DNA of 64,000 nucleotides from Burkholderiales bacterium (GCA_965279115.1 OZ257137.1:1078587-1142586); one strand, 5' to 3'; positions 32,936-36,432 are shown, numbered from the stretch's first letter. The notes: generated by a model from the sequence alone, not told the origin. Translations and numbers: made by a program.

Positions 32936-34009
<1,074 letters not shown>

Positions 34010-34030
34010 TCAATCAGCGCGGGGGAATGT

Positions 34031-34070
34031 GGAAAAGAAAAAGGCGCTTCCGATGAACCGGAAGCGCCTT
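34031..34070 (-). terminator. Rho-independent terminator (minus strand) ending the hsp20 transcription unit
   Basis: 12-bp stem AAGGCGCTTCCG (34041-34052) / CGGAAGCGCCTT (34059-34070). On the minus strand it is followed by TTTTTCTTTTCC. Confidence 0.8.
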
Positions 34071-34245
34071 TGAAAAGTTGCGGGATCCAGCAGGGGAACC
34101 AGATCCCGCCCCGCCCACATCATCAAGTGCGGGAGGAGGTCGCACAAGACAACGCCACGCGAACGTGAAGGACGGGTGCCGGCGGTGTTTCAGGGGAAGG
34201 AGCCACCGCCAGCGTACTGCCCGTAAAAGCAGATAAAGCTTTGAG
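34071..34245 (-). ncRNA. Candidate CcsR/cuckoo-like sRNA or structured 3' UTR with C/U-rich anti-SD loops
   Basis: No ORF here. Three minus-strand hairpins: stems 34181-34187/34204-34210, 34127-34131/34141-34145 and 34080-34087/34102-34109. Their loops read GCUCCUUCCCCUGAAA, ACCUCCUCC (the exact CCUCCUCCC is the complement of 34131-34139) and UGGUUCCCCUGCUG. A terminator follows. Confidence 0.4.
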
Positions 34246-34674
34246 TTACTGCACCGTCAAAAGTTTCCGGGTTTCGACAACTTTTTTCGGCAGGGTCAAG
34301 GTCAGCACACCGTCCACATACTTGGCGACGGCATTTTCCTGATCGATTTCCACACCCAGTTCAAAGCTGCGAACCGCACGGCCGACCTGACGCTCCGTAT
34401 ACAAAATACGATCGCCTTCTGAAGCGCTACGCTCGCCCTTGGCTTCCGCCGTGATGGTGACACGCGCACCGTCGATCTCGACGGCGATGTCTTCCTTGCG
34501 AAAGCCCGGCAGATCGGCCGCTACCGAATAGCTCGCGCCCTGCTCGGTGACCTCGAAAGGAATCGCGCGGACGCTTGTCGCAGGCCGGGCACTGCGTTGC
34601 GCCAGCGCGCCCAGCACATCATTGAAGGCGGCATCGAAGGGGCTGCGGCGCGCATACGAATAAAGCATGGTCAT
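34246..34674 (-). CDS. Small heat-shock protein (Hsp20/alpha-crystallin family)
   Basis: Starts MTMLYSY with a GGAGA SD. Alpha-crystallin domain (YSVAADLPGFRKEDIAVEIDG..VTITAE...F.R.F.L...D...A.Y.DGVLTLTLPK). Confidence 0.9.
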   Translation of the reverse strand: MTMLYSYARRSPFDAAFNDVLGALAQRSARPATSVRAIPFEVTEQGASYSVAADLPGFRKEDIAVEIDGARVTITAEAKGERSASEGDRILYTERQVGRAVRSFELGVEIDQENAVAKYVDGVLTLTLPKKVVETRKLLTVQ

Positions 34675-34728
34675 GATCGTTTCTCCGTTGTCGAAATTTT
34701 TTTGCGGTGGACACCGCGATGCATACCA

Positions 34729-34756
34729 AGGTGGGCCCTGCAAGACTTTTTTCAAG
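34729..34756 (-). promoter_or_regulatory. Sigma-32 (RpoH)-type promoter upstream of hsp20
   Basis: The minus strand reads tCCCTCTTGAAaaaagtcttgcaggGCCCACCTt. -35 CTTGAA lies at 34751-34756, the spacer is 14 nt, and the -10 GCCCACCT at 34729-34736 is compared with consensus CCCCATNT. Confidence 0.5.
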
Positions 34757-34925
34757 AGGGAATTGCAGCGCATATGTGCGATGGAAAAGCCCGATTGCTG
34801 CGCAGTGGCGCAACGCGCCGCGTGGCGGCATGGCAAAACCGATCGAGCGCGTAGATATGGTCATGGGCCGGCTAATCAAGTGGCCTAAAATCGACGGCAT
34901 CGGCCTCGTTGCCGCCGCCAAATCC

Positions 34926-35129
34926 ATGCAAGTTCCCAGCCCCAATTTCGAGAATCCCGAACGCCTCGCCTGTGCGCGTTGCGGCACCATGCTGGAATGC
35001 GGCGCACGCAGTGCCGGACCATGCTGGTGCACTACCTTGCCCCCGCTGACGAAGGTTGACGCCAGTCTGAATGGCTGCATGTGCCCGACGTGCCTCGCCG
35101 ACGCGCTGGCACGACAGGGCAAACCATGA
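34926..35129 (+). CDS. Cysteine-rich CWC family protein
   Basis: CARCG...C...GPCWC...CMCPTC pattern. The start is uncertain; the ORF is open from 34707 but its 5' part overlaps the hsp20 promoter. Confidence 0.5.
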   Translation: MQVPSPNFENPERLACARCGTMLECGARSAGPCWCTTLPPLTKVDASLNGCMCPTCLADALARQGKP

Positions 35130-35238
35130 TCGGGATCGGTTTCTATACCGGTGCAATTCCGCTGGCGCGGGACACCGCAAGCGCCTTCCCGGGAAAGACC
35201 AGATTCATGAACGTCTGCGGGGCCGGAGGTCCTGGCGC

Positions 35239-36432
35239 ATGACGCGCACCCACTGGAAGGGCGCGATCGTGGCGCTGCTCTTGGGCGTGGTCGGCGCGAT
35301 ATACATCGGCAAGCTGCCGCCGGCTATCCCGGCGCTGCGCGACGAGTTCTCGCTCACGCTCGCGCAATCGGGATGGCTGGTCTCGGCCTTCAATACGCTT
35401 GGCATGGTCGCCTCGATCTTCATGGGGCTCTTCACCGCACGCGTAGGTGCTTGGCGACTCTGCATGGGCGGCCTGGGCTTTCTGGTGCTGGGAGGAGCGA
35501 TCGGCGCTTTCGCCCCGGGTGCGCAATGGCTGCTCGCAAGCCGATTTCTCGAGGGCGTGGGCTTTCTTTCCATCGTGGTGGCGGCGCCAGCACTGATCAT
35601 GCAATCCACCGCCCCGCAGGACCGCAATCGCATATTCAGCTTCTGGGGCGGCTACATGCCCACCGGCACCACGCTGGGCATGCTGCTGGCGCCCCTGTTG
35701 ATCCAGACCCTGGGCTGGCGCGCCCTGTGGCTTGCCACGGTCGCCTGCGCCTTGGCCGCGCTGCTGCTGCTGTATACCCTGCGCGGCGCCTATCACCCGC
35801 CGGCAGCCGCCGGCACCACGTCCTGGCGTGCCTCCGCCGGGCCGCTCAAATCCGCCGGCCCATGGTGGATCGCATTGGCCTTCGGCTGCTACGCATTCAA
35901 CTACTACGCCATCATGGTCTGGCTTCCCACCTTCATGGTAGGTGAGCGCAACACGCCACTCGGTGTGGCGTCGTTGCTCACGGCGCTGATGGTGGCGGCG
36001 AACATTCCCGGCAACCTGCTGGGCGGCGCACTCCTGCACCGCGGCTTCGCGCGCGGCACCAATGTTTGCCTGGCCGGATTGGTCACGGCGCTGACCTGCC
36101 TTGTGATCTTCTCACCCGCACTACCGGACTGGGCGCGCTATCTCGGTTGCGTCGCGTTTTCTTTCTCGGTGGGCATCCTGCCGGGTTCGGTGATGTCGTC
36201 TGCCCAGACCCACGCGCGCACGCCGGCGCAGGTGGGCACGGTGCAGGGCATGATCAACCAGGGGTCCAACTTCGGGCAGTTCGTGAGTCCGCCACTGGTA
36301 ACGGCAGTGGTCGGTGCCTCGATGGCCTGGGATCGTATGCTCGTTCTACTGCTTGCCACCAGCACGATCATCTTCATGTCCGGATGCGTCATCCGCGTGA
36401 TCGAGCGGGGCCTCGCCGCCGCCCGGCCGTAA
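35239..36432 (+). CDS. MFS transporter
   Basis: About 12 TM segments. Starts MTRTHWKGAIVALLLG. Typical MFS loop pattern. Confidence 0.85.
   Translation: MTRTHWKGAIVALLLGVVGAIYIGKLPPAIPALRDEFSLTLAQSGWLVSAFNTLGMVASIFMGLFTARVGAWRLCMGGLGFLVLGGAIGAFAPGAQWLLASRFLEGVGFLSIVVAAPALIMQSTAPQDRNRIFSFWGGYMPTGTTLGMLLAPLLIQTLGWRALWLATVACALAALLLLYTLRGAYHPPAAAGTTSWRASAGPLKSAGPWWIALAFGCYAFNYYAIMVWLPTFMVGERNTPLGVASLLTALMVAANIPGNLLGGALLHRGFARGTNVCLAGLVTALTCLVIFSPALPDWARYLGCVAFSFSVGILPGSVMSSAQTHARTPAQVGTVQGMINQGSNFGQFVSPPLVTAVVGASMAWDRMLVLLLATSTIIFMSGCVIRVIERGLAAARP

Follow-up and report, generated by a model that had tools for sequence, protein, structure and literature searches.

A Conserved Structured RNA with Anti-Shine-Dalgarno-like Loops in the 3' Untranslated Region of hsp20 in Uncultured Burkholderiales

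Introduction

Among the described RNAs closest to the one reported here are those of the cuckoo family, in which two to four adjacent hairpins each carry CCUCCUCCC in the loop (PMC4615179), and which in a screen of 2,680 genomes were found in alphaproteobacteria only, mostly beside a DUF1127 gene. CcsR1-4 are RpoHI/HII-dependent RNAs derived from a 3'UTR, and RNase E matures them by cutting next to U residues, e.g., at ACUUC (PMC8034643). In Burkholderia, double-hairpin RNAs of 57-92 nt are independently transcribed from intergenic regions in three to five copies per genome, and for Burkholderia sRNAs the CU-rich loops are predicted to mask ribosome-binding sites (RBSs) (PMC5688073). In Staphylococcus aureus, the 3'UTR of icaR holds an anti-Shine-Dalgarno (anti-SD) motif, UCCCCUG, that pairs with the SD sequence of its own mRNA (UAGGGGG), and RBS occlusion by pairing has been documented or proposed for UCCCC-motif RNAs of this species (PMC3868564).

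SorX, from ompR-1, is a 3'UTR-derived sRNA of a stress regulon. CpxQ, from cpxP, is likewise a stress-regulon sRNA and belongs to the type II class of 3'UTR-derived RNAs. Well-studied sRNA arms exist for the envelope-stress and general-stress regulons; in the cytoplasmic heat-shock (sigma-32) regulon we know of few sRNA examples, mostly alphaproteobacterial (CcsR).

Here we describe a structured RNA element downstream of an hsp20 gene in a 64,000-nucleotide stretch of a Burkholderiales genome (GCA_965279115.1 OZ257137.1:1078587-1142586; hereafter the window). A first-pass annotation made from the sequence alone had proposed that the element is a CcsR/cuckoo-like anti-SD RNA in the 3' region of a sigma-32-driven gene. 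We compared it with homologous loci, with Rfam, and with the systems named above.

Results

The hsp20 gene, its presumptive promoter and the nearest downstream boundary marker lie on the minus strand of the window as follows.

34729..34756, minus strand: putative sigma-32-like promoter of hsp20, CTTGAAA-N14-CCCACCT (consensus match only)
34704..34718, minus strand: hairpin at the 5' end of the hsp20 5'UTR (CGCGGUG UC CACCGC), conserved in all loci
34246..34674, minus strand: hsp20 coding sequence (CDS), 142 aa, Pfam PF00011 (an ORF whose homologues carry PF00011 and are named HSP20 family proteins)
33943..33948, minus strand: TACAAT, probable -10 box of a separate argB promoter, marking a boundary outside the RNA

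The sigma-32 consensus is CTTGAAA-N13-14-CCCCATnT. As the first-pass annotation had claimed, hsp20 is preceded by a sigma-32-like match to this consensus, and the match is conserved at all homologous loci, with CTTGAA and a CCCAYNT-like -10 box kept in position. The pattern CTTGAAA-N12-15-CCCAYNT, which was picked after the site had been seen, has a single match in the 64 kb as compared to 0.01 expected. Immediately 3' of the -10 box, all loci (L001-L007 and L033-L042) have CGCGG-N5-7-CCGC with varying loop and stem letters; Rfam reported no ROSE or fourU thermometer at 34704-34718. A scan of 33700-35200 found no sigma-70-like promoter, and hsp20 and the RNA have one shared terminator. Between this terminator and argB, G(T/C)TACAAT is kept in nearly all loci and is probably argB's own -10 box, and its position after the terminator argues that the hsp20 transcript stops there. 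From the sequence, the simplest transcription unit would be the sigma-32-like promoter, hsp20, the RNA and the terminator.

Divergently upstream of hsp20 are a small cysteine-rich ORF (34707-35129, plus strand), with a Pfam Cys_rich_CWC domain in related loci (L039, L040 and L042), and an MFS transporter gene (35071-36432, plus strand). The usual upstream neighbor in related loci is cobT (DBI_PRT), and cobT-hsp20-argB synteny is widely kept.

On the minus strand, 174 nt separate the hsp20 stop codon (TAA, 34246-34248) from the terminator stem-loop (34040-34071), in agreement with the roughly 175 nt first estimated to lie before a strong minus-strand intrinsic terminator. When 34031-34245 was folded as minus-strand RNA, as had been suggested along with the original proposal, its minimum free energy lay far below that of dinucleotide shuffles (-106.3 versus -71.2 +/- 4.5 kcal/mol; z = -7.8), and none of 200 shuffles folded as well. 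The three hairpins with C/U-rich loops described in the first-pass annotation were all recovered with the loop sequences it had given. Hairpin 1 has the stem GGCGGUG/CACCGCC and the loop GCUCCUUCCCCUGAAA; the central hairpin has the apical stem GUGCG/CGCAC and the loop ACCUCCUCC, in which an exact CCUCCUCC occupies 34132-34139 (minus strand); and hairpin 3 pairs the arms GCGGGAUCUGG and CUGGAUCCCGC below the loop UUCCCCUG. Further parts of the fold had gone unmentioned. One hairpin follows the stop directly (34217-34232), and a second, small one (34156-34167) lies together with the long CCUCCUCCC-bearing hairpin inside a closing helix (CCCGUCC/GGGCGGG); also new is that nucleotide-level conservation starts ~45 nt inside the hsp20 CDS. 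The parts of the RNA are listed below, with pairing and compensatory changes taken from the homologue alignment described further on.

34258..34290, minus strand: invariant nucleotide block, CCGAAAAAA...CGGAAACUUUUG, candidate site for processing and for the RNA's 5' limit
34217..34232, minus strand: hairpin 0 (CUGCUU UUAC GGGCAG), in type A only; 6 pairs, 100% paired, sequence almost invariant
34178..34213, minus strand: hairpin 1 with C/U-rich loop GCUCCUUCCCCUGAAA (34188-34203); 12 pairs, 4 compensatory, 99.3% paired
34110..34176, minus strand: central domain, comprising the closing helix, the small hairpin (34156-34167) and the long hairpin with loop ACCUCCUCC (34132-34140)
34080..34109, minus strand: hairpin 3 with loop UUCCCCUG (34091-34098); 10 pairs, 96.6% paired
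34031..34079, minus strand: U-rich linker AACUUUUCAAAGG, intrinsic terminator (stem 34040-34071) and U-run

Predicted unpaired fractions of the three C/U tracts are 82-89% in the window RNA (82% for the hairpin 1 loop, 86% for that of hairpin 3) and 57-89% in all homologues tested. The terminator stem has 14 bp, 8 of them G-C, followed by the U-run, and the corresponding consensus helix 8 is 99.3% paired. The bare 8-mer CCTCCTCC occurs once in the window against 1.9 expected, which by itself is not significant; the significance of the element comes from its structure and conservation.

A protein search with Hsp20 against one genome per GTDB species returned 22 loci, and the seven closest (60-86% Hsp20 identity), all from Burkholderiales MAGs, have the element 3' of hsp20 without exception. 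A DNA pattern of three blocks, all from the RNA itself (CCTCCTCCC...GGCGGGG...GTTCCCCTG) matched 10 contigs in a metagenome search, of which 7 carry the hsp20-linked element (some are duplicates) and 3 are chance matches in unrelated sequence; none of the 10 matches is an element copy away from hsp20. Nine further element-bearing contigs were reached through Hsp20 homologues (52-78% identity). About 19 distinct Burkholderiales MAG or metagenome loci have the element, always between hsp20 and argB, and it was not found at the more distant hsp20-argB loci of Usitatibacter (L011) and Uliginosibacterium (L012). As judged by these comparisons, the element is a real, structured RNA restricted to one clade.

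The element has two forms, a short one of ~215 nt (type A; added examples are L033, L035 and L042) and a long one of ~330 nt (type B; L037-L041, with 3'UTRs of 320-345 nt). Type B has an extra structured 5' part and an unrelated terminator sequence at the equivalent place, and is without the small hairpin. The core that it has in common with type A consists of a hairpin 1 carrying UCUCCCCCU, a closing helix (GUCCGCC/GGCGGAC) around the hairpin with the invariant GACCUCCUCCC, and a hairpin 3 with the loop AAUCCCCCUGG. GACCUCCUCCC is invariant in 19 of 19 sequences of types A and B. The extra structured stretch of type B is ~140 nt long and runs from the hsp20 stop to the conserved core (L037:1930-2070 and the equivalent in L038-L041), and immediately before hairpin 1 type B also has a single-stranded AGCUCCCRC.

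Covariation downstream of hsp20 homologues, a check that had also been proposed for the element, was assessed on 12 distinct full-length sequences with a mean column identity of 80%. RNAalifold gave 64 pairs in 8 helices, of which 16 pairs show double compensatory changes, and 97.6% of cells over the 64 pairs are paired. None of 500 column shuffles matched the observed pairing, compensatory-pair count or covariation score, and when partners were slid by 1-3 columns the pairing dropped to 39-48%. Eleven of the pairs with compensatory changes are in helices 3-6, i.e., the central domain. Pairs that never vary were found in hairpin 0 (5 of 6) and in the terminator stem (9 of 12). Over the 19 sequences of both types, compensatory changes extend to the closing helix, the apical helix and the outer stem of hairpin 3, where column pair 135/161 is CG in 12 sequences, UA in 5 and UG in 2. 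The MAFFT alignment of types A and B misaligns hairpin 1, and cross-type covariation in that hairpin is taken from per-sequence folds only. A covariance model built from type A cores only recovered all type B cores at E ~1e-3; these E-values are rough.

The type A model (R1) found one copy of the element in the window and one in each related locus, with no second copy in 217 kb that included the entire window. Two weak matches that contain GCGAUCUCCUCCUGG (L002:4706-4837 and L004:5192-5323, E ~0.9) were dismissed as chance; both lie antisense to a minus-strand ORF at its SD region and start, and this ORF has a signal-peptide-like N-terminus.

As compared to L033, identity is 92% in the RNA, 74% in the CDS and 56% in the argB-side spacer; as compared to L042, the values are 80%, 66% and 51%, respectively. 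By this measure, conservation of the RNA is equal to or above that of the CDS and far above that of the spacer. The homologues differ by single-base indels in loops and stems, and the region thus has no conserved reading frame. The region, described in the first-pass annotation as having no ORF, is overlapped by mechanical ORFs of 43-52 aa. A small ORF was considered and rejected because the indels are frame-breaking; stop-free stretches are uninformative at 64% GC.

At gathering thresholds, Rfam gave no match in the whole window or in four homologous loci. When matches were listed by E-value, suhB/mmgR, Pxr, ar14 and CcsR1 appeared, all sub-threshold. In the 1 kb searched (33900-34900), ar14 (RF02344) scored 18.7 bits against a threshold of 58.8 (E = 0.52) and CcsR1 (RF02791) scored 12.2 bits against 65.3 (E = 7.2); RF02278 had no match up to E = 10. 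CCUCCUCCC is found in the central loop only, with loop 1 reading CUCCUUCCCCUG, CCCCUCCCCC or UCUCCCCCU (in homologues, hairpin 1 loop variants are CCCCUCCCCC, UUUCUCCCCUG and UCUCCCCCU) and loop 3 reading UUCCCCUG or AAUCCCCCUGG. The assignment to the CcsR/cuckoo family failed on these grounds, i.e., a CcsR1 score far under threshold, the motif in one loop of three, and no DUF1127 neighbor. The element is thus not a demonstrable member of that family, and a resemblance in the presumed mode of action stands. It constitutes a well-supported, uncatalogued family of structured RNAs, absent from Rfam 15, and a full-text literature search of open-access papers and preprints returned no report of an hsp20-linked RNA of this kind.

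Conservation at the end of the hsp20 CDS is concentrated in the codons CCG AAA AAA GTY GYC GAA ACC CGG AAA CTT TTG (34258-34290). In all 14 type A loci, codons -13 to -4 have the same letters at synonymous sites, and all five type B loci retain CCGAAAAAA, CGGAAACUUUUG and CGGAAACTTTTG. This genome has 64% G+C, and AAA, CTT, TTG and CGG are minority codons in it; in argB, AAA is used 2 times as compared to 16 for AAG, and CTT+TTG 7 times as compared to 24 for CTG+CTC. Synonymous invariance despite minority codons points to selection on the nucleotide sequence itself. We suggest that the invariant GGAAACUUUUG is a candidate RNase E-type processing site: its A/U-rich ...AAC/UUUU..., presumably single-stranded, resembles the U-adjacent sites at which RNase E releases CcsR RNAs, and after a cut there the processed RNA would start just within the CDS. 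The block could alternatively be bound by a protein or serve as a promoter for another sigma factor.

Three other roles considered for this block were set aside. An internal sigma-70 promoter would have its -10 box at TATCTG (type A) or TACAGA/TACGTA (type B), downstream of the invariant TTG of CTTTTG, and in these the essential final T is missing. An antiterminator was suggested by the resemblance of CCGGAAAC in the CDS to the terminator 3' half CCGGAAGC, but type B keeps the block with an unrelated terminator. Lastly, UUUCGACAAC in the 5'UTR (34687-34696), just 5' of the SD, is complementary over ten nucleotides to GUUGUCGAAA at the CDS end (34272-34281); L001 keeps this complementarity with a single G-U pair, the L002 group has lost it, and it is probably chance.

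Discussion

The loops of the element are complementary to SD sequences (GGAGG, AGGGG), and ACCUCCU, the core of the 16S rRNA anti-SD, is part of the middle loop. Loops that are near-invariant above stems that change by compensation are the signature of displayed recognition loops, as read from the alignment, and because the displayed loops are anti-SD-like, RBS occlusion by base pairing is the best-supported mechanism. Anti-SD loops are of low complexity and SD complementarity is generic; an RNAduplex target scan of the window was uninformative, its top matches being the element's own antisense and assorted G-rich sites.

With moderate confidence, we read the element as a new family of 3'UTR-derived RNAs of the heat-shock regulon that would pair with SD sequences in the manner of CcsR. 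In a clade of uncultured Burkholderiales, the 3'UTR of the hsp20 mRNA is a structured and conserved RNA, ~215 nt long (330 nt in the sister group), and its transcription would run from the sigma-32-like hsp20 promoter to the shared intrinsic terminator. This promoter and terminator suggest that, when heat or proteotoxic stress sets in, the RNA builds up along with the chaperone. Its C/U loops, of the (Y)CUCCCCU type, ACCUCCUCC and UUCCCCUG, are predicted to be unpaired and are borne by three stable helical modules. RNase E may release a 3' fragment, the candidate cut lying either 9-12 nt ahead of the stop codon, at the invariant GGAAAC/UUUUG, or in an AU-rich stretch just past it, and the freed RNA may act in trans like CcsR, NfeR1 or the Burkholderia CU-rich sRNAs, by occluding target RBSs. 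The RNA would then be a non-coding arm of the heat-shock regulon. We prefer such trans action after processing to cis action on hsp20. The regulatory logic first proposed for this locus (promoter, 3'UTR and anti-SD loops) thus holds at the level of sequence, but the family name attached to it is not supported.

The element is like CcsR/cuckoo (RF02791) and ar14/NfeR1 (RF02344) in having the CCUCCUCCC anti-SD motif in a hairpin loop and a modular arrangement of adjacent hairpins. As in CcsR, it appears to lie in the 3'UTR of a small stress gene with an RpoH-type promoter and a shared terminator, and an RNase E-type AU-rich site upstream is plausible. Unlike in CcsR and ar14, only one of three loops has the motif, and neither covariance model recognizes the element. 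A closing helix surrounds the central hairpin together with an additional small hairpin; the element is one composite RNA, not a tandem array; hsp20, and not a DUF1127 gene, lies upstream; and the host belongs to the Burkholderiales and not to the alphaproteobacteria. It is also like the RF02278 'toxic small RNAs' (ncS03, ncS05, ncS27 and ncS62) in having a betaproteobacterial host but differs from them in being ~215-330 nt long, single-copy and joined to hsp20. The suggestion that a betaproteobacterial version is a new context has to be qualified, as CU-rich anti-RBS sRNAs (RF02278) are known in Burkholderia, although the element has no match to that family.

By its location, shared terminator, lack of an own promoter and excess conservation, the element falls at the sequence level within the class of 3'UTR-derived sRNAs. 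Like the type II examples CpxQ and SorX, it has no promoter of its own, uses the terminator of its parent gene, is conserved from within the end of the CDS, and would form a non-coding arm of a stress response. It differs from them in presenting three generic anti-SD loops as seed rather than a single specific seed, and its processing is putative.

The possibility that the element is a purely cis-acting 3'UTR, i.e., a block to 3' exonucleases, a temperature-sensitive decay element, or an icaR-like element that pairs with its own SD, is in our view unlikely. The exact icaR motif UCCCCUG (PMC3868564) is present in a long mRNA 3'UTR here also, and twice, in loops 1 and 3; the RNA and hsp20 are physically linked at every locus; and the promoter scan found no separate promoter for it. 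However, the SD of hsp20 is GGAG(A), and the loops pair with the hsp20 translation-initiation region at -4 to -11 kcal/mol through only 4-6 bp of generic GGAG, with no covariation with changes in the 5'UTR across 8 loci, for which reason an icaR-type pairing was rejected. Unlike icaR, the element is highly structured, has three loops and is conserved across many species, and three different invariant loops on compensating helices exceed what a stabilizer needs. We regard as quite unlikely a protein- or ribosome-binding RNA, sponge or decoy that would use the C-rich loops and hairpin 0 as recognition sites. Sequence conservation, and not that of pairing alone, is seen in hairpin 0 and the terminator stem, as their invariant pairs show, and the A-rich/U-rich invariant block in the CDS could be a site for a protein, but no candidate partner is encoded alongside (the neighbors are cobT, argB and the MFS transporter gene) and base-pairing roles of C/U-rich loops are well documented.

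True homology with cuckoo/CcsR/ar14, through vertical descent or horizontal transfer with divergence, appears improbable. The best of the weak Rfam alignments were to ar14 (18.7 bits) and CcsR1 (12.2 bits), the ar14 model aligns hairpins 1 and 2 to its two CCUCCUCCC hairpins, and an exact CCUCCUCCC loop, a three-hairpin layout and RpoH-type control are held in common. These scores are far under gathering thresholds (E 0.5-7 on 1 kb), the motif is missing from two of the three loops, there is no DUF1127 gene, and the family was confined to alphaproteobacteria among the 2,680 genomes; moreover, the common motif is short and easily convergent. Least credible, to the point that we give it almost no weight, is the absence of any dedicated function, the region being an elaborate terminator, a repeat or mobile element, or a small coding gene. 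The overlapping mechanical ORFs of 43-52 aa and the readiness of GC-rich sequence to fold would fit such a region, but it occurs once and in conserved synteny, with no other copy found by the covariance model, every reading frame is broken by single-nucleotide indels, 16 pairs show compensatory changes, and conservation is above that of the flanking spacer and the CDS.

The general principle of an anti-SD regulatory RNA is already known. Comparative support for the element is strong, its putative function is read by analogy, and its link to the heat-shock regulon is plausible. A bolder version of our preferred reading, which we offer as speculation and consider unlikely in its full form, is that the hsp20 mRNA is the precursor of a sigma-32-induced triple anti-SD mimic, cut at GGAAAC/UUUUG, that competes with ribosomes and is a convergent betaproteobacterial counterpart of CcsR. 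If true, the riboregulator would compete for strong SD sites and reduce the supply of newly made proteins while misfolded ones are dealt with by the co-encoded chaperone, and it would be a so far missing sRNA arm of the sigma-32 response. A covarying RNA of this kind joined to a sigma-32-type hsp20 gene in Burkholderiales would mean that anti-SD RNAs became coupled to chaperone or stress genes more than once. The three loops and one putative cleavage site make the element a concrete candidate for mutation, and the sequences and covariation are sufficient to seed an RNA family model. All hosts of the element are uncultured Burkholderiales, the source of the window being a freshwater betaproteobacterium.
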